The notes under the pieces: generated by a model | What the model was told of the DNA's origin: nothing | Databases searched by the model: none | Seen by the model: the letters and a program-made list of their open reading frames with translations, nothing else | In this document: one piece after another, positions 9,902 to 24,107 of the stretch | Numbering within the stretch: position 1 is the stretch's first letter | How the letters are laid out: the number at the start of each line of letters is the position of its first letter | Source of the DNA: a virus | Taxonomy: Duplodnaviria > Caudoviricetes | Length of the DNA stretch: 25,301 bases | IMG/VR virus record: IMGVR_UViG_3300042481_000276 | Span: 1-25,301 of that record | Strand: one strand, 5' to 3' | Position numbers and translations under genes: made by a program

Positions 9902-10531
9902 TTACCGCTTGGCGGCGGTCAGAATCGAATCAGCCAATTCAGCCCGTTGGAACAGTTCCAGCAGGCGATCGGCATCCACCACCGGGGTCGGTGTTTCAAG
10001 TGATTTCACCGTGAGAATTCCAGCGTCTTTATTGGCTGGGATCGGCACAAATGAAACTTCGAGGATTTCATTTACCTCGGAAATCAAATTCGCTCCACTC
10101 TTGGCAAGTTGCTTCTGAGTGCCTGTGGGCTTGTAGTTGTAGCGGTTCCAGATTTCGAGCACATCCGCTTCCTTGATCTTGCGAGAGGCGGCCCGAAATG
10201 AAATCGACATTTTATTGACGGCTTTTTCCTTCAGCAGTTGCCGTATTCGCTGGCCTGTTTCCGTGGCCGAAAATGAGCCATCGACCAGCAGTCCGTTGCG
10301 GTCCTCGCGTGCATCACGCATGGTGGCAGCCACGGACATCGTCTTATTGATGTGGTCGGCAAGTATCACCCCGCCATCATCCAGAAACTCTGGCAGGGCC
10401 TTGTTATAGGCACCCGGCAGGATCATGTCACCTTGCCGGTCAATGTTCAAAAACCGGCTTGCATAGGCTGTAAAGCCCCCTGAATCAGACTCTGACAAGC
10501 CTGATTCGATTGCTTTTGTCATCAGATCCAT
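9902..10531 (-). CDS. prohead maturation protease, HK97 family
   Basis: Motifs GFTAYASRF..IDRQGDMILPGAY, LADH, MSISF and EVSFVPIPAN. Confidence 0.92.
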   Translation of the reverse strand: MDLMTKAIESGLSESDSGGFTAYASRFLNIDRQGDMILPGAYNKALPEFLDDGGVILADHINKTMSVAATMRDAREDRNGLLVDGSFSATETGQRIRQLLKEKAVNKMSISFRAASRKIKEADVLEIWNRYNYKPTGTQKQLAKSGANLISEVNEILEVSFVPIPANKDAGILTVKSLETPTPVVDADRLLELFQRAELADSILTAAKR

Positions 10532-10534
10532 GTA

Positions 10535-12274
10535 TCAGGACTCCAGAATTCTGCCAGTTTTTGTGAACGACTTCGCGTTGCCGATTGCAACCGATAAATA
10601 ACCGCCTTGATCAGCCGTTTCGTAATCTGCTTCAGATGGTCTTAAGTAGCCGTTTTCACCGGGCTTGACGGGCGGTTTGAGGTTCTTTGGCATCTCGTCG
10701 TCGAATACTTCCAGCAGCGAACAGCGGCAGTTGCTTGAAACGATTCCGTTTGCTATAATGTAGGTGCTTTGTGATGTTTCAAAATCGTAAACAGGAATTA
10801 CACCTTGCGATATACTGATATCAATCTTGACGATCTTCGTGCAGCTTACGAGTCCGGGGACAGCGTCCTGAAGATGTCGAAGGATTTCGCTTTGTCTAGG
10901 TCTGGAATCACACTCCGACTTAAAAGGATGAGCCTCCCCATCCGCACCGGCTCCGAGGCTAATGTTGTCCGGATGTCGCGACTGTCCCCAGAGGGCCGCA
11001 GCGTCCTCACGAGATCGGCCAACAAGGCCGCCTGTGGCCGAAAGGCAAGCATCGAGGAACGTGTCAAGAGAGCCAAGACTGTTGAGCGTATCGGCGGAAT
11101 AGCGACCAGCGACCACGAGAGGCAACTCGGACGGCTGTTGACCGAAAGAGGCGTCGCGTTCACTGCTCAGAAGGCGTTCGGCATCTACAATGTCGATATT
11201 GCCATGACAACCTCTCCCATCGCCGTGGAGATCTACGGGGGAAGCTGGCACGCTTCGGGGCGGCACGGCGCTCGCCATGCGGATCGCGTCGAACACCTGC
11301 TCAGCATTGGCTGGACAGTTGTTATCGTTTGGGTAACTACCAAGTGGGGTAAGGGGGTCCATTTGGATGGCCGTGCTGCGGATTATATCGTCACCCTCTC
11401 GAAGGTCTTGGGCAGACGCCCATCCGCTAGAGGTCAATATCATGTGATTCGGGGTGACGGTGAATTCGCTTCCGTCAGCAGTGCAAACCCTCACCAAGCT
11501 GCCCTGATACTTGGCAGACATGGCGGAAATCAAACCAGAGGTAATGACGGGCGTTTCGCCTAGTACGCAACCGGGATGGAAAGGCGGGAACTTCAGGTCC
11601 TTGTAGGTCTTATTGTTACCGTTCGTTCCGAATGTCCCGCCCTTGGGGATAATCGGGCACAGCCGATAAATCATGTGACACATGGGGCAGGCGTCACCCG
11701 AGACGAGTAACTCCCATCCGGCAATGAAATCAAGGCTTTCGGCGGCCTTAACCAGTCCGGTGTTGTAAGCCCGTGCTGATTCGGTGATTGCAATCCGCCG
11801 TGCTCGCCAGCGTGCATTGTCCTTGATCCAAGTGCTGATTCGGTCAGTCAATTCGCCCGCCGTTTCACCGGATTCAATGGACGCTGCGATATCCAGACGC
11901 ATGCCTTCCAGCGTCTTGAGCGTGTCGCTGGTGAATTGTTCGATGGTCTCGTTACACAGGTCCAGAACAGCCTCGCGAGCGGCTTGAAGCACCTCAGGAG
12001 CACGGACTAGCCATTGATCGGCATCCTGCTGATCAAGCGACACCAGCAGTGACCGGCCTGACTGGTCGATCCATGCCTCGATGACGGGAATGAATTTGCC
12101 AGCCATGTCCAATGGTGCGGTGAACGGGTCGGCTTCCTTCTTACGGTCGTAAATCGCGAGCCACGGTCTTGCCACGTTGTTGCCCAGTTCCGTCAGGATG
12201 CGGCGGGCAATACGCTCCAACTCCGTGCCGCTTGGCATGGCATTGAGCCTGCTCTTAGGTGTTTTGCGTTTCAT
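10535..12274 (-). CDS. MuF / SPP1 gp7-like head morphogenesis protein precursor containing an intein
   Basis: RARRIAITESARAYN, CPMC, and the PPFHPG|CRC motif interrupted by a 280-aa insert. Spliced product would be 299 aa. Confidence 0.9.
   Translation of the reverse strand: MKRKTPKSRLNAMPSGTELERIARRILTELGNNVARPWLAIYDRKKEADPFTAPLDMAGKFIPVIEAWIDQSGRSLLVSLDQQDADQWLVRAPEVLQAAREAVLDLCNETIEQFTSDTLKTLEGMRLDIAASIESGETAGELTDRISTWIKDNARWRARRIAITESARAYNTGLVKAAESLDFIAGWELLVSGDACPMCHMIYRLCPIIPKGGTFGTNGNNKTYKDLKFPPFHPGCVLGETPVITSGLISAMSAKYQGSLVRVCTADGSEFTVTPNHMILTSSGWASAQDLREGDDIIRSTAIQMDPLTPLGSYPNDNNCPANAEQVFDAIRMASAVPPRSVPASPVDLHGDGRGCHGNIDIVDAERLLSSERDASFGQQPSELPLVVAGRYSADTLNSLGSLDTFLDACLSATGGLVGRSREDAAALWGQSRHPDNISLGAGADGEAHPFKSECDSRPRQSEILRHLQDAVPGLVSCTKIVKIDISISQGVIPVYDFETSQSTYIIANGIVSSNCRCSLLEVFDDEMPKNLKPPVKPGENGYLRPSEADYETADQGGYLSVAIGNAKSFTKTGRILES
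10731..10759 (+). promoter_or_regulatory. sigma70-type promoter for the antisense endonuclease, inside the intein C-terminal codons
   Basis: TTGCTT (10731-10736), 17-nt spacer, TATAAT (10754-10759) with extended TG (10751-10752). AGGA at 10793-10796 lies 8 nt before TTG 10805. Confidence 0.75.
10805..11563 (+). CDS. HTH + Vsr/DUF559-like endonuclease (putative homing endonuclease) antisense to the intein
   Basis: N-terminal HTH-like region (LRAAYESGDSVLKMSKDFALSRSGITLRLKRM), then SDHERQLGRLL..G..F.AQ...IYNVDIA...IAVEIYGGSWH...DR..HLLSIGWTVVIVW. Confidence 0.85.
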   Translation: MRYTDINLDDLRAAYESGDSVLKMSKDFALSRSGITLRLKRMSLPIRTGSEANVVRMSRLSPEGRSVLTRSANKAACGRKASIEERVKRAKTVERIGGIATSDHERQLGRLLTERGVAFTAQKAFGIYNVDIAMTTSPIAVEIYGGSWHASGRHGARHADRVEHLLSIGWTVVIVWVTTKWGKGVHLDGRAADYIVTLSKVLGRRPSARGQYHVIRGDGEFASVSSANPHQAALILGRHGGNQTRGNDGRFA

Positions 12275-13069
12275 TTAATTTATTGCGGGTGCCGTGTCAG
12301 GCGTGATCGTTGCAATTGCCGAGACGGAATAGGCATCAAAACCCCATCCTTGAATATTCTTTTCGCACAACCACGCACGCCCATTTTGGCCCCATCGCGT
12401 GCCCCAACTATTTTGCCACCTGATTAGCCATTGCCCATCGCTGGCCTTCCGCATCCCTAGTCCGCCCATCACAGCGTGATTGTGCGAGCCTGACCTGTTG
12501 GACGGGCAGCCGTTGGCGTCGAGTGCGTTGAAGCCGCTGTTGACTGGGACAGAGAAATTGAACGGTCTTCGCAGCTGCGTTGCAACGCACAAATCATCCC
12601 ACGTCAGGAGCGTCGTACCGATTTCAATTTTGAACCGTTTGCAGTCATTGCGTGCCTGTTGCTTGACTGAGGACGGGTTGATTGTGCCGAATGGAACCAG
12701 CGAAGTCTCGCAAGTGCCTGACTTCTCCAAGAGTTGCAACGCCTCGGCAATGCTTGACCCGGTGTCCCAGCCACGGCACAAGTCGGCATAGATCAGCCAG
12801 GGAGACAGTTCGATATGCGGCTGACCGGCAATCCAGCGAGCCACCTCCAGCGATGTGGCTGCGGCGTGCCCATTGCAGGCACCAAACTGGCCTTGATCTT
12901 TGATCTTGATTGGGAAGTTATCTGACTTCGTTAAATCGAATTCCACCCATTCGCTTTGTGGGATGGCCGGGAGTGGTTGTGAACCGAGTTTGAGACTGAT
13001 CGACGGTGGGCGGTTGCCCATGCCCCGCCAATCGTGGCCGAAGCAAGGGAATAGTTCAGGCTGGCTCAT
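12275..13069 (-). CDS. papain-like (C1 family) cysteine peptidase
   Basis: IKDQGQFGACNGHA (oxyanion Gln and catalytic Cys), NHAVMG (His), WQNSWGTRWGQNG (Asn). ATGA-coupled start at 13069. Confidence 0.9.
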   Translation of the reverse strand: MSQPELFPCFGHDWRGMGNRPPSISLKLGSQPLPAIPQSEWVEFDLTKSDNFPIKIKDQGQFGACNGHAAATSLEVARWIAGQPHIELSPWLIYADLCRGWDTGSSIAEALQLLEKSGTCETSLVPFGTINPSSVKQQARNDCKRFKIEIGTTLLTWDDLCVATQLRRPFNFSVPVNSGFNALDANGCPSNRSGSHNHAVMGGLGMRKASDGQWLIRWQNSWGTRWGQNGRAWLCEKNIQGWGFDAYSVSAIATITPDTAPAIN

Positions 13070-13836
13070 CTTCCACACACGCAACTGAGTTCAGGTTCGT
13101 CGTCGCGAAGGAAATTCGATTGCATCGCATCATTCTCTACGAGAGTCTTCCAAGAGAAATTCCGGCCCAAACCTTTGGCGGTTGTAAGTGTTTCTTTCGC
13201 TGTGTCTTCCAAGGCGATAGCCCTTGCGAACAGGTCAGGATGATTTTTTGACAATTCGATCACCTCAGATTTCTTGTGGGCAGGACAGAAGAAGCAGCAC
13301 GACTTTTCAGGGACTTCTATTCCCTCGTTCTTGATGAGTGACTCGCAAAGCCTTCGGTCTAATTGCATCTCGATTAGCGGATATCGTAATTGGTATTTGC
13401 TTGGATAGTCGTCGCGGAACTTCTTGGAGCGTGCCAGATCCCGTGGCCCGTTGTCGAACCCGATGCACTTAATGACCTTCTCTTTACCGCTCCAGCACTC
13501 AACTGCCGGTTCCCAATTCTTTACCCACCTGTGTATCGGCTTGATCTTGTAATCACCGGAGCATTGATTAAACCCGTAAGCGAGTGAGGGCAGCATTTTG
13601 CGGTCTAAACAGTAGTCTTCCAGCGACTCTTTTTTTCTGACCTGAATGATTTCTGAATGTCCGTTTGACACTAGCCAGTCAGATAGTTTCTGGACTGTCG
13701 CGTAAGTCGAATCCTTTTCGGCTCCCGTGTCGGCAAAGATGACAGCGTCAAAAGCCTGTTCCGTCTTGACCATCGCTATCACGAGTGCGGTACTGTTGAT
13801 GCCTCCCCCGTAACTGATGATCGTTGGCTGGCTCAT
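13066..13836 (-). CDS. PAPS reductase-family (PP-loop, Cys-cluster) protein
   Basis: Motifs IISYGGGINSTAL, VIFADTGAE, YPLIE and KSCCFFCP. Confidence 0.8.
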   Translation of the reverse strand: MSQPTIISYGGGINSTALVIAMVKTEQAFDAVIFADTGAEKDSTYATVQKLSDWLVSNGHSEIIQVRKKESLEDYCLDRKMLPSLAYGFNQCSGDYKIKPIHRWVKNWEPAVECWSGKEKVIKCIGFDNGPRDLARSKKFRDDYPSKYQLRYPLIEMQLDRRLCESLIKNEGIEVPEKSCCFFCPAHKKSEVIELSKNHPDLFARAIALEDTAKETLTTAKGLGRNFSWKTLVENDAMQSNFLRDDEPELSCVCGR

Positions 13837-14348
13837 TTGATCGCCTCCAAGATCGCCATAATATCGGCCAGGCTGGTGGGTCGAATCACCTTGACCAGCT
13901 TACCGGCTGCGTCCTGCAATATCACACACGGCGTGCCGGTGGCCTGTAGTGACGCCCGAAATCCAAGGCTGTCGATATCGGCCTCTGTCGTCAGATACGA
14001 TCGGTAGTTTATCGCCTTGCGTTCGACCTCTGTTCTGAGGGCGGAATCGGTGCGCCACGCTGCTTGATCGGGGTTGTCTGTGTCAACGATCACGCTCAAC
14101 CACTTGACGCCCGTGATGGTATCAGGGATCGGGATCGGGATCGGTCGTGGTTGTGGTCGCGGCTCGTCACCAGACCGCAGGATCAGTACCGAGCCGGATT
14201 GTTTGCCGATCAGGTAGGTGTTGCCACCGTCAACGACCATCCACGATGATTCTGACATGGCGGGAAGGCTTGTCGCCTGCCCCGTGTCTGCCATCGCGGG
14301 CATTGCGACTAGCGATATCAGCAGTGTGACGATGAACGGTTTGAGCAT
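13833..14348 (-). CDS. secreted protein with Pro-rich linker and thioredoxin-like C-terminal fold
   Basis: Signal peptide ending AMA, linker PRPQPRPIPIPIP, and GTPCVILQDAAGKLV. No CxxC motif. Confidence 0.55.
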   Translation of the reverse strand: MLKPFIVTLLISLVAMPAMADTGQATSLPAMSESSWMVVDGGNTYLIGKQSGSVLILRSGDEPRPQPRPIPIPIPDTITGVKWLSVIVDTDNPDQAAWRTDSALRTEVERKAINYRSYLTTEADIDSLGFRASLQATGTPCVILQDAAGKLVKVIRPTSLADIMAILEAIK

Positions 14349-14376
14349 GATTCCTGCCAATATCAAGAGGGTTAGT

Positions 14377-15349: not shown

Positions 15350-15571
15350 TTAGCTCAGTGATGGTGGAAGTTTATCGCCTGACGCGAGGTAACGGGCAAG
15401 CTGGGCGACTGCAAATACAATTGCAATTCCAAGCGGTGCGATGGTATCCACAATCTTAGGCAGATCCGCTTGGATTACACCCACGGCTGTAATAGCCCCC
15501 ACAATAGCAGCACGGATGATTGTTGTGCGTGCTTGGTCAAGGTTAACCTGACCTAAAACATCTTTGATCAC
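15350..15571 (-). CDS. putative holin
   Basis: 73 aa with two predicted TM helices. Confidence 0.5.
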   Translation of the reverse strand: MIKDVLGQVNLDQARTTIIRAAIVGAITAVGVIQADLPKIVDTIAPLGIAIVFAVAQLARYLASGDKLPPSLS

Positions 15572-16032
15572 TGTTTTTCACCTTTCGTTTGCGGTCTCTT
15601 GCGAAACTCCCAAGGTGGTTGCACATTGGGATCTGACCACAAGCCCCGGCTGGCTGTCTTGGCCTGTGTCTGAGCGGATTGTAATTCTTTATCGCGTTTG
15701 GCGTATTGTTCATACCAATGGGCCATGCCAGTTTCGACCATCGTCAGACTGGCATCTTTGCCAGCGATTTCAACTCTCGCCAGCAGTCGTCCGTAGCGGT
15801 CTTTTTTGCCCGGTTTGATGGTGACGTTTTGGCCGAATACCAGTCCTGATAGGGCTTGTTTACTGGCTTGGCCGAACGGTTGTTTCAGCTCTGGCGAGTC
15901 AATGCCGTCCAGCCTGATCTTGATTGTTTCATCTGTCCTGACCGTGATCGTATCACCATCGTAAACGGCGATTACTTTGGCTTCAAAGGGTGGGGCGAAC
16001 GTGAGCAGGAGCGTTGCAATTGCAATAATCAT
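15568..16032 (-). CDS. thermonuclease (staphylococcal nuclease-like) with N-terminal hydrophobic/signal segment
   Basis: Motifs VYDGDTI, IRLDGIDSPE, DRYGRLLA, GLWS and PWEFRK. Confidence 0.92.
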   Translation of the reverse strand: MIIAIATLLLTFAPPFEAKVIAVYDGDTITVRTDETIKIRLDGIDSPELKQPFGQASKQALSGLVFGQNVTIKPGKKDRYGRLLARVEIAGKDASLTMVETGMAHWYEQYAKRDKELQSAQTQAKTASRGLWSDPNVQPPWEFRKRPQTKGEKQ

Positions 16033-16235
16033 TTATCCCCCTTTGGAACCGTAAAACAGTGGCCCAGCACAACGCCCATTCCTACGGCAAAGCCTAGGGA
16101 TCGCTGATTGACTTCCCAGATTGCCTCGCTCCAGGTTGTGCCGCCTGACTGCCATTTGTAAAGGTCAACCAACAGCAGCACGATGGCTGCGGTGATTAAC
16201 GCGATGAAATTTGTGGCAGCAGTCCTGAATTTCAT
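16029..16235 (-). CDS. small two-TM membrane protein (holin-like)
   Basis: 68 aa from the ATGA-coupled MKFR start; two hydrophobic segments. Confidence 0.6.
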   Translation of the reverse strand: MKFRTAATNFIALITAAIVLLLVDLYKWQSGGTTWSEAIWEVNQRSLGFAVGMGVVLGHCFTVPKGDK

Positions 16236-16750
16236 TTCACGCACCTTATGAGGATCGCCAAAGCTGACAGTATGCCGAGCAGCCATGTACTAGGCTCTGG
16301 AACGGTGTTTCCAGTGATTTGGAGTGACAAGCCGGTTGCGTTCTGCGCCCACGCAATTGGGTTATCTGCCGAAATACCAAGGTAGTAAGTCGTATGCGGG
16401 ACCATCGGAATATCGAGGTGAAAAAATGGGATGTTGGAGAACCCGATCAGGCTCACTTGGTCGGATGGAGTGTATTCCAATCGCATCTCGGTCATCCACC
16501 AGTCCACAGGCTTTTGCAGCAAGGGATCGTAAAATGACAGGTACAACGATCCGGTAAATCCGGCTGGCTTATAAATATTGAGCCTGTAATCCCACAGCTC
16601 GGTGGAGTCGCCAGAATTGAATGCCTGATATATCCACTGATCATGGCCCGTGTAGACAAGCCCCGTGATCGGCTCGGCTAAATTATCAAACAATATCTCC
16701 GAGCCTTGTACCGGCAGTGCCAGAAATAGCAGGAGCAGCAACTTTTTCAT
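16232..16750 (-). CDS. PEP-CTERM sorting-domain protein
   Basis: Signal peptide MKKLLLLLFLALPVQG; C-terminal VPEPSTWLLGILSALAILIRCVK. Confidence 0.88.
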   Translation of the reverse strand: MKKLLLLLFLALPVQGSEILFDNLAEPITGLVYTGHDQWIYQAFNSGDSTELWDYRLNIYKPAGFTGSLYLSFYDPLLQKPVDWWMTEMRLEYTPSDQVSLIGFSNIPFFHLDIPMVPHTTYYLGISADNPIAWAQNATGLSLQITGNTVPEPSTWLLGILSALAILIRCVK

Positions 16751-17301
16751 AGTGTTCCGTTTGCATTTGGAGGTATCGCCCACAACACGGGCATTTCGGC
16801 GGCGAATTGGGCGGGTGTGGGTACACTTCGAAGTCCCGCCAGCACGTCTGATTCGATCTTGTAGGCAACTTCGTAGCATCTCTGCCTGAACGACTTAGCG
16901 GCAACCCCGTCAGCGGCCCATTGCGGTACCGGACTGTCAAACCATGTGATGGCCGATGAAATAGAATCGAAGTCGCGTGGTGCAACCTGGGCATCCATGT
17001 GCTGATCCAAGAGTTGCTTGAGGATCGCTTTTTGTGACCTTAAATAGCCCATCTGTTCATCAGGCGTGAGCGTGACCACAGCCCATGTTTCAGTGACCTT
17101 CGAGCCTACCAGTTTCAACGTCTGAAGCAGTCGAGTTGTGGCTGGATTGATTGTCGGCTTAACCGATGGCGTGAACGGGTAGAAGCCGTATTGAGCTAGT
17201 ATATCGGCGTCCAGCGTGTGGAAGTTGCTGACGTTGGCGAAGGTCGTTGGCAACACTTGAGGTGATCCGATTTGACCGTTTTTGACTTGGCAGAATTGCA
17301 T
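16747..17301 (-). CDS. putative fibre assembly chaperone/accessory protein
   Basis: 184 aa after the fibre/lectin genes, with an LDQHMDAQV..RDFDSISSAITW pattern. Confidence 0.5.
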   Translation of the reverse strand: MQFCQVKNGQIGSPQVLPTTFANVSNFHTLDADILAQYGFYPFTPSVKPTINPATTRLLQTLKLVGSKVTETWAVVTLTPDEQMGYLRSQKAILKQLLDQHMDAQVAPRDFDSISSAITWFDSPVPQWAADGVAAKSFRQRCYEVAYKIESDVLAGLRSVPTPAQFAAEMPVLWAIPPNANGTL

Positions 17302-17309
17302 CTAGAGCC

Positions 17310-17984
17310 TCAAGAGTTGGGGAATGCGGTTGTTGGAACTGTGATTGTGCGGGCCACGCCTATTGTTGCTCGGAAGTCGTCGATGTAGCCTTTGAAATAT
17401 CGATGGGTGGGAATTGGGAATCCGATTGTTGTCGCTGCGGTAACGCTAAAAGCGTTAGCCCCAGATGCCACTTGCGTGCCGCCGACATAGATTTTGTAGT
17501 TATTCGACGTATCTCTAGTGACTGCAACGTGATACCAAGTCCCTGCTGTGATAATAGCTGGAGAAATAACGATGTCCGTCTGCGGATAGCGCATGACACG
17601 AACCCGTCGATTCGACAGAACAATTCCAAGTCCATTAATACTGTGAATGATCGTTCTGTATGTTTCAATGTCGTCTGGCCTGACCCAGCACTCAATTGTG
17701 AAAGCAGTTCCTGTGCCTGATGGCATCCCGCCTGAAAGAGACAGGTAATCTCCAGTGCCGTCAAAGTACGCTGCTGCCCCACCAAAACAGCTTTGGGTCG
17801 TGGATATTTGTGCGCCGTCTACGGCAGTAACTGTTTTTACATTTGCCGAATTATCTGTAAAAGTCGTGCTTCCATTTGCTCCATCCATGTGTAGTAGTAA
17901 GGAGACTGAGCTAAAGTAAGGATCACTTGGAACGATACCTCCACCACCAGACTTTTTTGCATTCCTGACAATGTTGGATAGCAT
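17310..17984 (-). CDS. LamG / concanavalin A-like lectin-domain virion protein
   Basis: DPYFSSVSLLLHMDGANGSTTFTD, FDGTGDYL, FTIECWV, WYHVAVTR and GYIDDFR. TAATG-coupled start at 17984. Confidence 0.85.
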   Translation of the reverse strand: MLSNIVRNAKKSGGGGIVPSDPYFSSVSLLLHMDGANGSTTFTDNSANVKTVTAVDGAQISTTQSCFGGAAAYFDGTGDYLSLSGGMPSGTGTAFTIECWVRPDDIETYRTIIHSINGLGIVLSNRRVRVMRYPQTDIVISPAIITAGTWYHVAVTRDTSNNYKIYVGGTQVASGANAFSVTAATTIGFPIPTHRYFKGYIDDFRATIGVARTITVPTTAFPNS

Positions 17985-18883
17985 TAGAAATTCTGCCCTC
18001 CCACATAACCCGTCCAGCTCGTCCCCGCATCGCTCGTGAAGAAGGCGAACGTGTCGATCTTGCCAGATGTCAATGTCAGCGTTGGAGCCGTGCCGCCAGC
18101 CCATTTAATGGATGCTGGCCAAGTCACTGCCCATGCTGTGCCGTCAGCCGTCAGGATCAGTGTGAACGATCCACCGGAACCGCTTGCAGGAGGATTGGAG
18201 ATCGTCAGGGTGGTGATGGCTGCGTTGAGCGAGACCGTAAAGATATTGGATATTTCGAGATTTAATGTCAGCGTTCCGGCTGAGATCGTTGGGCTGGAAA
18301 TGGTTTCGCTGTAATCACGAAGTTTAGCCCGAATCAGTTCCGTGTCGAGCAGATCCTGCGGCCCCGTAAGGTTGGCGTAATTGTAGTTTGCCGTAGGGAG
18401 ATAGGTTGCTGTGGCGTTTGCAGTTGTCAAATAAACCGTTAAGTTTGGCGTGCCTGTCAGGTCGGTATAATTCCCAGATGTCGCCACGTTGGCAAGAGTC
18501 GGTTTGCCTGTGATGTTCGCGTACGTTAGGTTTGCGGGCGTGAGATAGTTGCCAGATGCAGCGTATCGCCCGTCGGCATAGTCGCGTGTCAGGATTGAGT
18601 TGGCTGACCAGACTGTGACGTTGTTGAGCGTGGCCGATGAGGTTGTCAGCGTGAAATTCTGTGGGAAAAGAGCGATTTCCGTAACGTTGCCGAGGTTGTC
18701 TGTCGAGTACATGCCTGCATTCTTACTGATCTGGTAATTGGCGTAAATCGCGGTCCCGTTAGAATCCGTCTGGCCTGTGGGTAGGTTGGCAACAACGTAT
18801 TGCCACCCGCCGACACAGTGGGTTCCATTGTTTGGAAACTCTTGAATAACACCTTTGTGTTGCTTGCCAAAGATTAAAGACAT
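17984..18883 (-). CDS. putative fibre protein
   Basis: Y-x-[ND]-[LI]-TG-x-P repeats; C-terminal domain VTWPASIKWAGGTAPTLT...DTFAF typical of fibre tips. Confidence 0.7.
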   Translation of the reverse strand: MSLIFGKQHKGVIQEFPNNGTHCVGGWQYVVANLPTGQTDSNGTAIYANYQISKNAGMYSTDNLGNVTEIALFPQNFTLTTSSATLNNVTVWSANSILTRDYADGRYAASGNYLTPANLTYANITGKPTLANVATSGNYTDLTGTPNLTVYLTTANATATYLPTANYNYANLTGPQDLLDTELIRAKLRDYSETISSPTISAGTLTLNLEISNIFTVSLNAAITTLTISNPPASGSGGSFTLILTADGTAWAVTWPASIKWAGGTAPTLTLTSGKIDTFAFFTSDAGTSWTGYVGGQNF

Positions 18884-18884
18884 G

Positions 18885-19640
18885 TCAGGACCCCTTGAAT
18901 GTCAGAGGTGCAAACAGAGTTTTCGCAACTTCGAGCGTAACTACCTCGTCGCCATTTACCGTGACGAGTCCGTTGGTCAATATCGTGACTCCTGCGCCAT
19001 CGACTTGCATATCGGTCGAAATGTCGTCAATATAGTTTTTGAAGTATAATCTTGCACCACCAAAAGCAGCGACATTAAACCCGGCAGTAAAGCTAAGGTT
19101 CCCAGACCGATCCGTCCTGGCATATCTTAGGGTTGCCCCCACGACTTCAAGTTGCTCTTTACCAATGTCCATTGCCGGATCGTTGTAAGTCTGGGTATAC
19201 CCAGCAACGTGTCCCCCTGCAACACTGGTAATTGGATTATATGCCAAACCAGAATATGACTCTAACAGGACGGTACTGTTGTTTTGGCCCGCTGTTGTTC
19301 GGTTGGCCCTCAGGCCAGCAACGTATCGAGCATTGCTACTTCCAAGTCCGTTGGGTATCTGGCTCACCCCGTAGGTGACGTTCGAAATCTCGATCATCCC
19401 GTTCTGAGCCGACAGCAGCCCATTGGCGTTGATCGACAGATTATCACCAACAATGACCCCGCCAAGAGTGGTGGTGGTCGCTGGCGATAAGACTGAGCCG
19501 GGGCCTTGCGGTCCCTGTACACCCATCGTCAGCACTTCGATTTGCTTATCACCAGTGACTTGGATGGTGTCGGTCGTGCCGCTGCCTGTGACCGTCACCA
19601 CATCGACGCGGGTTTCCGTGACTACGACGATATCAGACAC
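18885..19640 (-). CDS. putative fibre/virion appendage protein
   Basis: Collagen-like stub GVQGPQGPG and the motif PATTTTLGGVIVGDNLSI. Confidence 0.6.
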   Translation of the reverse strand: MSDIVVVTETRVDVVTVTGSGTTDTIQVTGDKQIEVLTMGVQGPQGPGSVLSPATTTTLGGVIVGDNLSINANGLLSAQNGMIEISNVTYGVSQIPNGLGSSNARYVAGLRANRTTAGQNNSTVLLESYSGLAYNPITSVAGGHVAGYTQTYNDPAMDIGKEQLEVVGATLRYARTDRSGNLSFTAGFNVAAFGGARLYFKNYIDDISTDMQVDGAGVTILTNGLVTVNGDEVVTLEVAKTLFAPLTFKGS

Positions 19641-22918: not shown

Positions 22919-23614
22919 TCACTGTTTTTCCATTGGGGGTAGTGGCGGGTTCAGAAGCGTTCGGGTCGGAGTCGCACCGCCCCCTTCTGACTGGATGCCA
23001 GACGTGCCGCTGTCAGCACTTCGAACGCGTTTTGGATACGGTTGTCTGAGTGGTTCGATCTTGGCTCGCATCTCGTCATCAAGGGGCATGAGATACTTGT
23101 GCTTTGCTGACTTCGGGACATTCCGAGATCCTTCAGGCAGATTTGTTCCATAAAGGCTGTATGCTTGCCTTCGATGCATCATTCGGCCATTCACGACGAC
23201 ATTAGACTCACCGCCGTGCGTTCCTGTGAACGGCCATCCGCAAGCCTGGTAAATCCCGCCATGATGACCTTGCCCTGTATCTGCGTAGCTGACGACAAGC
23301 CGAATTCCTGGGCAAGCCTTTTTCAGAAACTTGATCGCAAGAGCCAAGATCTTGCTGACTTCGTTTGCGTGATTTCCGAGAGCCACCCTTGTCAATTCAC
23401 AGACCTCGACAGGCTTTAAGCTGTACGGCTTGTGAATGTTCTGATTTGCTCCAAGTGAAAAATAGACACAGCCTATGAACCGTCCGCTTTCCCATGCACC
23501 AATTTTTACCGACTTCCCCGCCGGAAGGGACTTAGAGTAATGCCAATGCTCAACAGCATATTTTGCTGCCTCATGAGTGCACCAATCAAGTTTGAGTTCA
23601 GGGCGTGAAGACAT
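22919..23614 (-). CDS. mom: Mu Mom-like DNA adenine hypermodification enzyme (GNAT fold)
   Basis: Motif series matches Mu Mom as I recall it: HYS, ELTR, VVSYAD..QGH.G.IYQA.GW...G, HKYL, QPYPK. Likely start MSSRPE at 23614. Confidence 0.85.
   Translation of the reverse strand: MSSRPELKLDWCTHEAAKYAVEHWHYSKSLPAGKSVKIGAWESGRFIGCVYFSLGANQNIHKPYSLKPVEVCELTRVALGNHANEVSKILALAIKFLKKACPGIRLVVSYADTGQGHHGGIYQACGWPFTGTHGGESNVVVNGRMMHRRQAYSLYGTNLPEGSRNVPKSAKHKYLMPLDDEMRAKIEPLRQPYPKRVRSADSGTSGIQSEGGGATPTRTLLNPPLPPMEKQ
22956..23028 (-). tRNA. non-canonical tRNA-Gly(UCC)-like element nested in the mom-like gene
   Basis: Acceptor stem GCGTTCG/CGAACGC plus U73; D stem GTGC/GCAC; anticodon stem TCTGG/TCAGA with loop CATCCAG; T arm GGCGG-TGCGACT-CCG(A)CC. 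73 nt, no encoded CCA. Confidence 0.8.
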
Positions 23615-24107
23615 GACCACACCCCGGGCATTCAGTTTTAGCCTTCTCATCAAGCCTGCCTTGATCATCAATCGAGCCAGGCTGAAAGTCGGGTGTCAGC
23701 AACTCGCTCCCCAACCCCTCCACAAGTGCGTCAATCTCGCCATCACTATACCCTGCCGCAGCCGTATCGAACTCCTCCGATTGCAACGCCCGCAAGGTCT
23801 CAGCCAGCGCCGTGGTATCCCACTCGGCCAGTTCCGCCGTCCGGTTGTCAGCGATGGCGTAAGCGGTCGCAGCCGATCCAGTGAGCGACGACTCGACCAC
23901 CTTGATATCGCTCCACCCTAGTTTGACTGCGGCCATGTACCGACCGTTGCCGGATAGGATGATGCCCTTGGAGTCGATCACAATCGGGTGTTGCTGCCCA
24001 AACTTGCGAAGGCTGGCAACGATCGCGTCAATGTTCCGCTCCCCGTGCTTTCGCAGGTTCGCAGGGTCCTGAGATATCGAGCCGATGGCGACTGTCTTGA
24101 TTTTCAT
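23598..24107 (-). CDS. ParB/Srx N-terminal domain protein
   Basis: DPANLRKH, SLRKFGQQHPIVID, LSGNGR, IADNRTAELAEWD and C-terminal CPGCGHVF. Confidence 0.88.
   Translation of the reverse strand: MKIKTVAIGSISQDPANLRKHGERNIDAIVASLRKFGQQHPIVIDSKGIILSGNGRYMAAVKLGWSDIKVVESSLTGSAATAYAIADNRTAELAEWDTTALAETLRALQSEEFDTAAAGYSDGEIDALVEGLGSELLTPDFQPGSIDDQGRLDEKAKTECPGCGHVFTP

Follow-up and report, generated by a model that had tools for sequence, protein, structure and literature searches.

Full inteins that hold anti-sense VSR-like endonucleases have been described in actinobacteriophages by Gosselin, Arsenault and Gogarten, whose main text matches the endonucleases to the structures 1CW0 and 3R3P (bioRxiv 10.1101/2025.01.02.630785). 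According to the same text, inteins of the minor capsid protein (IPR006528) all have non-canonical endonucleases, signs of transfer are found in two VSR-like clusters, and the sporadic distribution is read as homing; the second open reading frames (ORFs) are said to lie typically outside the splicing domain, which is given as a tendency and not as a criterion. Here we describe an intein of this layout in the MuF-like minor head protein gene of a tailed phage (IMG/VR record IMGVR_UViG_3300042481_000276, positions 1 to 25,301; this whole stretch of 25,301 nucleotides (nt) is called the window hereafter). The locus is likely a mobile intein in which a predicted homing gene, with a helix-turn-helix (HTH) region and a Vsr-like nuclease domain, is written antisense, codon against codon, and its predicted start signals fall within the C-terminal splicing codons; we give this reading a probability of roughly 0.85.

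The window intein is like those of Gosselin et al. in being unsplit, in having no in-frame endonuclease, in enclosing a VSR-like antisense ORF, and in its top structure 1CW0 and its link to 3R3P. It differs in that the ORF crosses block B, and in that it comes from a phage with close sequence in lake metagenomes, within a family that reaches far beyond actinophages. MuF inteins of Gordonia phages match the window in both frames and may be members of the Gosselin set. The layout is therefore already known, minor capsid hosts included, and the doubt about novelty voiced when the locus was first annotated was well placed. Their main text makes no mention of a promoter, ribosome binding or the penultimate residue, and what goes beyond it here is the predicted start signals in blocks F and G, the double-coded block B, and a main -35 register that excludes the penultimate His. 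In the literature searched, to which subscription papers and bioRxiv supplements did not belong, no description of an embedded promoter or of the His loss was found.

I-Bth0305I and the EDxHD endonucleases likewise place a Vsr-like catalytic domain behind an N-terminal DNA-binding region and are tied to self-splicing elements (PMC3239194). Together with the fractured-gene endonucleases, they are encoded in group I introns or stand free between split-intein halves, and NUMOD repeats and phage late-promoter hairpins are among their features (PMC3239194, PMC2677866); the free-standing Vsr-like genes between split inteins are those of Dassa et al. 2009 (PMC2677866). Unlike these, the window nuclease is nested antisense in an unsplit intein, has an HTH, and belongs to a family that has not kept the final Asp of the motif. 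Endonucleases hidden in another frame of an in-frame insertion are also on record, as anti-sense LAGLIDADG inteins, in the cyanobacterial dnaX intein, where the endonuclease lies in the +2 frame with putative Shine-Dalgarno motifs (bioRxiv 10.64898/2026.09.14.751524), and in the ShiLan HNH insertion, which has no splicing domain (PMC11855218). As these sources describe them, all belong to other nuclease families, and dnaX and ShiLan use the same strand, unlike the window. A Jerseyvirus intein was noted in PMC8425127, without mention of an antisense gene in the accessible part of that paper.

Two genes in one register

The features to which the text refers are as follows.

10535..12274, minus strand: gene for the MuF-like minor head protein precursor, 579 aa (Phage_Mu_F, E = 4.5e-4; PHROG 115 minor head protein, E = 3.7e-11)
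11570-12274, minus strand: N-extein of MuF
10535-10729, minus strand: C-extein of MuF
10730..11569, minus strand: intein of 280 aa (840 nt), MuF residues 236-515, placed by splicing motifs and exact empty alleles
10805..11563, plus strand: antisense ORF of 252 aa with a TTG start, a predicted homing endonuclease from Pfam, profile and structure matches and purifying selection in its own frame
10805..11092, plus strand: N-terminal HTH and helical region of the nuclease, residues 1-96, predicted to bind DNA (model helices 8-96)
11102..11467, plus strand: Vsr-like nuclease domain, residues 100-221 (E105, D131, E142, H149, H154, R161), from the predicted model
11480..11563, plus strand: low-confidence tail, residues 226-252, over intein block A (pLDDT, for predicted local distance difference test, < 50)
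11444..11455, both strands: double-coded block B, intein T-P-N-H (minus) against nuclease V214-I215-R216-G217 (plus), from family codon counts

The antisense ORF shares its codon register with the intein, and its TAG stop is the complement of intein codon 3 (CTA). Coordinates and frames thus confirm the initial annotation, which had reported a 252-aa ORF wholly inside the intein with the same codon boundaries; the 759 nt that it called stop-free on both strands include the stop codon, and 756 nt are open on both. Such a gene fits easily into an intein because, as the genetic code implies, only TTA, CTA and TCA must be avoided. In 13 other minus-strand coding stretches of the window we counted 127 in-register antisense stops in 4362 codons; the longest open antisense run was 211 codons, and the probability of 252 open codons was ~7e-4. 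The ORF length alone is only moderate evidence, and it is the nuclease match and the selection pattern that decide the reality of the antisense gene. The double-strand observation itself, an intein with an in-register antisense nuclease ORF, is confirmed.

Class 1 inteins have Cys or Ser at position 1, a C-terminal Asn and Cys, Ser or Thr at position +1, and the penultimate His is usual and not obligatory, as inteins without it do splice (PMC4031507). The junctions in the window read FHPG/CVLG and VSSN/CRC, and Cys1, Asn280 and Cys+1 are all present, as are the assisting residues Thr39 (B:7), His42 (B:10) and Asp262 (F:4); the roles of these residues are taken from PMC4031507. The penultimate His (G:6) is missing and is replaced by Ser279. 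Pfam Intein_splicing matched the intein frame with E = 2.7e-7, below the gathering cut-off, and a profile of the intein matched solved inteins with a best E of 1.2e-8. A Pfam scan of this frame gave no LAGLIDADG or HNH match and no endonuclease family. The earlier statement that there is no in-frame endonuclease therefore holds, whereas that of intact splicing blocks needs the reservation that Ser stands at the penultimate position. From these motifs the insert is likely a class 1-type intein and is predicted to splice.

The antisense frame matched the Pfam families MTES_1575 (E = 5.6e-7) and DUF559 (E = 2.2e-4), and a profile built from 10 sequences matched 3hrl (E = 2.6e-5), Vsr 1cw0 (E = 4.4e-5) and I-Bth0305I 3r3p (E = 0.037). 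The predicted model (pLDDT 77.9) was aligned by VIA-align with 1cw0 at Z = 11.2 and a root-mean-square deviation of 2.7 over 115 residues, with 3hrl at Z = 10.3, and with 3r3p at Z = 9.9 and a deviation of 2.7 over 95 residues. The structure prediction thus bears out the HTH-like N-terminus and Vsr/DUF559-like nuclease first read from the sequence, the HTH part weakly, as residues 1-44 align to the GcrA DNA-binding domain at Z = 5.7 and to the Tn3 resolvase HTH at Z = 5.0. No NUMOD family matched the antisense protein in Pfam at E <= 0.01, and HTH-like helices are found instead. Identity with the Vsr mismatch-repair enzyme was considered and rejected, the TIGR00632 score being 18.5 bits against a cut-off of 97.85.

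Scanning viral contigs with a profile yielded 154 confirmed relatives, and the best 80 of these were kept. The opposite in-register frame is open across the match in all 80. Intein bounds were located in 73 of the 80, the 7 without bounds were left out, and 55 inteins remain below 90% identity; counts out of 55 refer to this set. The nuclease residues E105, D131, H149, R161 and W176 are kept in 55/55, and E142 and H154 in 54/55; these positions played no part in the search patterns, whereas the conservation of Q122, Y128 and N129, which did belong to a search pattern, was discounted. The EDxHD residues were assigned through the profile alignment with Vsr and not by a residue-wise comparison with I-Bth0305I. 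On the intein side, C1, H42 and N280 are invariant in 55/55, although C1 and N280 also served to set the bounds, and the penultimate residue is Ser or Lys rather than His in 47/55.

Selection in the two frames was compared by the ratio of nonsynonymous to synonymous substitution rates (dN/dS) between the window and the intein of allele L027, which differ at 96 of 840 nt. The nuclease frame gave a dN/dS of 0.22 in the linker (codons 67-243) and of 0.16 in the Vsr core, where the intein frame gave 0.62 and 0.64, respectively. Intein codons 31-66 gave 0.10 in the intein frame, and codons 256-280 had no amino-acid change at all (intein-frame dN/dS 0). Among the 55 inteins, codons that would stop the antisense frame number 0 at positions 31-155, where ~138 are expected, and 1 at positions 156-255, where 194 are expected. 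The dN/dS calculation on both strands, proposed at first annotation, and the codon counts suggest that the nuclease frame governs the intein middle, that the intein frame governs both ends, and that both constrain block B.

The last helix and strand of the nuclease domain are coded antisense to intein codons ~35-67, block B included, and the ORF crosses block B in 55/55 relatives and in Gordonia phages Sedona and Malisha. In this block Thr39 is ACC in 51/51 and Thr37 in 31/31 relatives (extein baseline 0.30), and Asn41 is AAT in 48/50 (baseline 0.42), which fixes nuclease G217, G219 and I215; Thr46, by contrast, uses all four codons. The nuclease stop lies anywhere from the N-extein to intein codon 30, and for this reason the last 27 residues of the window nuclease, over block A, are likely read-through to the first stop. 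Blocks A and B were both first noted as stop-free on the two strands; of the nuclease ORF, the part over block B is kept.

Two further observations concern the double-coded region. Antisense-stop codons are enriched at the intein ends of the 55 relatives, with 41 at codons 1-10 (10.9 expected) and 99 at codons 256-280 (37.9 expected), which fits selection for the nuclease stop and the promoter boxes. A variant contig of the intein middle, covering 11105-11387 in runs X3 and X4, has 26 differences; it also lacks one base at 11212 and has one extra base behind 11215, and these two changes together restore both frames.

The layout is not limited to these contigs. In prokaryote genome contigs, 13/13 matches lie in an open host frame with an intein C-terminus. 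GenBank phages gave 124 records that match the nuclease and 109 that match the intein, and the layout recurs in each of the six that were opened (Salmonella phage PK2, E. coli phage Snoke, a Vibrio phage, a Pseudomonas phage, and Gordonia phages Sedona and Malisha), where the nuclease stop lies at intein codons 2-16. The antisense ORF is annotated only in PK2, as a hypothetical protein (L056:1504-2313), and uncalled in the other five. Homologues of both frames are found in MuF of Gordonia phages Sedona, Keitabear, Malisha and others. A scan by splice junctions only, which avoids picking by the nuclease and extended over 39 of 64 parts, yielded 119 loci. Full flanks were available for 80; the nuclease was present in 70 of these 80, always in the in-register antisense frame, and the 10 without it are not all confirmed as MuF inteins. 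The antisense VSR layout thus extends far beyond actinophages, across many phage groups.

Among the inteins picked by junction without a nuclease are an apparent 161-aa mini-intein (L161:~1140-1624) and a 396-aa intein (L166), both without a promoter-like site. Two of the relatives from the profile scan, L112 and L135, read H-P-R-G-K-A-E where the others read H-P-x-C, and may be class 3-like or have shifted junctions; their bounds were not located and they were excluded from the counts.

Predicted start signals and signs of transfer

Two further features are found when the intein's last 27 codons are read along the nuclease strand.

10731..10759, plus strand: predicted nuclease promoter in intein blocks F/G, with TTGCTT at 10731-10736, a 17-nt spacer and the extended -10 TGCTATAAT at 10751-10759 (from sequence and family enrichment)
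10793..10807, plus strand: predicted Shine-Dalgarno AGGA at 10793-10796, 8 nt, and the TTG start at 10805-10807, over block F (from sequence)

In many relatives TTGACA stands opposite S-S-N or V-K-N codons and TATAAT follows 17-18 bases on, in S-L-Y; GGAGG falls within D-L-Q, and the His codon of G-H-V-Y has the ATG as its complement. Of the 55 relatives, 30 reached a promoter score of at least 10/12. Under three null models, in which amino acids were fixed and synonymous codons redrawn, the means were 1.1, 2.2 and 4.0 (maxima 5, 8 and 10), the last with codon usage pooled from the same blocks. Perfect TTGACA-17/18-TATAAT promoters occur in 13/55, GGAGG in 25/55 against 3.9 expected, and GGAG[G/A]T 5-7 nt ahead of ATG or GTG at the start site in 29/55. 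Of 412 extein control segments, 1 reached a promoter score of at least 10/12. Of the loci picked by splice junction, 34/66 with the nuclease and 0/9 without it have a promoter-like site (Fisher p = 0.003).

The main -35 register and the penultimate His codon are mutually exclusive. Inteins that keep the His (Jerseyvirus, Snoke, Vibrio) often carry TGnTATAAT in block G instead, and the window, with one extra Ile (YIIANG), uses a third promoter register, so that registers differ among lineages. When the -35 box was set against the penultimate residue, the counts were 24/45 for non-His and 1/45 for His; the lineages are related and the p-value was not counted as evidence, and the link is partly true by construction, because a His codon cannot give TTGACA in that register. 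Folding 66 nt of RNA across the start region gave -12 kcal/mol, without a shuffle control, and no regulatory hairpin is claimed.

On balance, with some reserve, we favour the following joint reading: blocks G and F form a full backwards expression cassette of -35, -10, Shine-Dalgarno and start; block B doubles as the code for the final strand of the nuclease fold; the -35 box cost most lineages the penultimate His; lineages that kept the His or gained one codon, as in the window, rebuilt an extended -10 in another register; and, among inteins at the MuF site, the antisense design predominates across phages.

MuF alleles with and without the intein, a comparison called for at the outset, were both found. 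Among 43 close alleles, with N-exteins 87-100% identical, 38 lack the intein and read HPG-CRC at the exact junction, and 5 carry it, one of them identical to the window. Comparison of L027, L031 and L045 finds 1-2 differences in the 840 sites of the intein against 47-57 in the 705 of the N-extein, and between the window and L015 none of 271 intein sites but 56 of 705 extein sites differ. If the identical copy is set aside, every intein-plus allele has empty alleles as its nearest neighbours, and 700-nt blocks next to near-identical inteins differ at 26-71 sites. In an N-extein tree of 32 rows (11 with identical or near-identical partners left out, last 45 bases trimmed), the approximately unbiased (AU) test rejected a single clade both for the five intein-plus rows together (p = 1e-8) and for the trio L027, L031 and L045 (p = 0.003). 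The between-clade synonymous distance is 0.37-0.41 for the intein and 1.2 for the extein, the overlap of frames lowering the intein value.

Close sequence of the window phage is present in lake metagenomes, and in one of these a contig with the exteins joined and no intein occurs together with contigs that cover the intein. Stretches of 32-45 identical bases on the C-extein side of three intein-plus pairs, against at least 32 in 16/173 empty pairs, are a weak hint of co-conversion, representing only about two independent events. A palindrome search in invariant positions around the empty site found none, and no target symmetry is claimed.

The discordance between inteins and exteins fits the pattern expected of recent homing, and the element is under selection and probably still mobile. 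The self-contained, double-coded homing element of the initial annotation is supported by the Vsr fold of the model, the selection in the nuclease frame, the precise empty alleles and the near-identical inteins in divergent exteins. In the mechanism that we propose, the head operon would yield the 579-aa precursor, from which class 1 splicing would remove the intein and leave MuF of 299 aa, the total length of the exteins, as the motifs and exact empty alleles suggest. Host RNA polymerase of the sigma70 type may start in blocks F/G on the opposite strand, and the nuclease may be translated from the Shine-Dalgarno and start codon over block F; both steps are suggested by enrichment. In a mixed infection, the nuclease would cut or nick intein-less MuF near the H-P-G/C-R-C junction, much as I-Bth0305I cuts near the insertion junction of its intron (PMC3239194), and repair would copy the 840 nt into the cut allele. 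The cleavage and homing steps are drawn from the fold, the conserved catalytic residues and the intein/extein discordance.

Alternative explanations

Several observations weigh against a homing element with its own start signals, and they are considered here together with the explanations that they favour. The element may home while the nuclease is made by read-through or phage-specific transcription, the promoter-like sites in blocks F/G being a by-product of the intein amino acids. The window -35 box indeed scores only 3/6, neither promoter type is found in 19/55 relatives, and a stock promoter scan of 10400-12400 gave 2 sites against 1.2 expected, with the embedded site unlisted. As to the host, the N-extein had no match in the phage collection, and the capsid had only distant ones. 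Nevertheless, the enrichment persists with amino acids fixed, even under the null that pools codon usage over these blocks themselves (30 against 4.0), 13/55 promoters are perfect, different lineages use different registers, and every annotated window gene other than the nuclease lies on the minus strand. We therefore hold a by-product to be unlikely.

A real nuclease need not be a homing enzyme; it could serve in repair or in attack on competing phages, with the intein spread by ordinary recombination. Vsr is a repair enzyme, and position 160, D in the window, is K in 26/55 and E in 15/55 relatives, so that the last Asp of EDxHD is not conserved. The exteins are mosaic, and ordinary recombination also breaks trees; a clade of the window-type pair was not rejected by the AU test (p = 0.07). 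These points are met by the TIGR00632 score (18.5 against 97.85), by the position of relatives always inside an open host frame on the other strand (80/80 and 13/13), by near-identical inteins beside 700-nt blocks that differ at 26-71 sites, and by the lack of the intein in most close phages, which leave a non-homing role decidedly improbable.

That the insert does not splice, and that MuF tolerates it or is inactivated, as proposed for the ShiLan methylase insertion with its hidden HNH gene, seems very improbable. It would agree with the missing penultimate His, with Pfam and TIGR intein scores at or under the cut-off, and with the existence of out-of-frame endonuclease insertions without splicing domains (PMC11855218). 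The invariance of C1, H42 and N280 in 55/55 (C1 and N280 being also used for the bounds), the intein-frame dN/dS of 0.10 at codons 31-66 and 0 at 256-280, the profile match to solved inteins at E 1e-8, and the splicing of inteins that lack the penultimate His (PMC4031507) stand against it. Finally, the view that the antisense frame is a mere shadow, open because TTA, CTA and TCA are rare, in a degenerate intein with filler, can draw on the 211-codon run that arises by chance in the window and is hardly credible given the nuclease fold with invariant catalytic residues, the antisense-frame dN/dS of 0.16-0.28, 0 stops against ~138 expected, and nuclease matches in junction-picked loci that all fall in one frame.

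Other points temper the reading of a double-coded homing nuclease itself. Foldseek against PDB gave no hit at E <= 0.001 (best 1.1e-3), although the same entries ranked first. The nuclease-frame dN/dS is 1.0 at intein codons 31-66, from few sites, so the double constraint there rests only on family codon counts. The choice of the best 80 of 154 relatives favours intact genes, and the 55 inteins are related, so that counts among them are of non-independent events. In 5 of the 13 prokaryote matches, 1-2 stops lie within the tblastn match and may be tail stops or decay.

Neighbouring genes and meaning for the family

The window is a 25.3-kb contig whose minus strand holds terminase, portal, prohead protease and capsid genes, MuF lying upstream of those for the prohead protease and the major capsid protein. 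Between the portal region and MuF (interval 12275-14366, minus strand) are a papain-like C1 peptidase gene at 12275-13084, matched in Pfam at E = 1.7e-8, and, at 13066-13836, a PAPS-reductase-like gene, matched to PHROG 424 at E = 7e-29. In runs X3, X4 and X6 a contig departs from the window sequence at the MuF start (loose end 12273), and the gene upstream of MuF thus varies among relatives. About 6 kb of accessory genes between portal and MuF (15568-19640, minus strand) include a staphylococcal nuclease homologue (15568-16032), a Laminin_G_3 lectin-like gene (17310-18104) and a tail-fibre-like gene (17984-18883). A Mom-family DNA modification gene (22919-23671, minus strand; Pfam PF25680, E = 2.4e-41) lies immediately upstream of the terminase genes and adjoins a ParB-N-like gene (23598-24107).

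The added value of the locus is the breadth of the family and a quantified case for start signals and fold elements within splicing blocks. A layout known from actinophages widens to a large family, which includes the coliphage Snoke and the Jerseyviruses, both growable in the laboratory, and whose nuclease is usually missed by gene callers (called in 1 of 6 GenBank records opened). From the predicted signals comes a specific proposal, open to test, for the way in which an antisense intein endonuclease might be expressed, and the splicing blocks offer a natural case in which catalytic residues, a predicted promoter and a second protein fold share the same codons. The family also supplies a large number of site-specific Vsr-like nucleases that are uncharacterised and whose empty target alleles are known.

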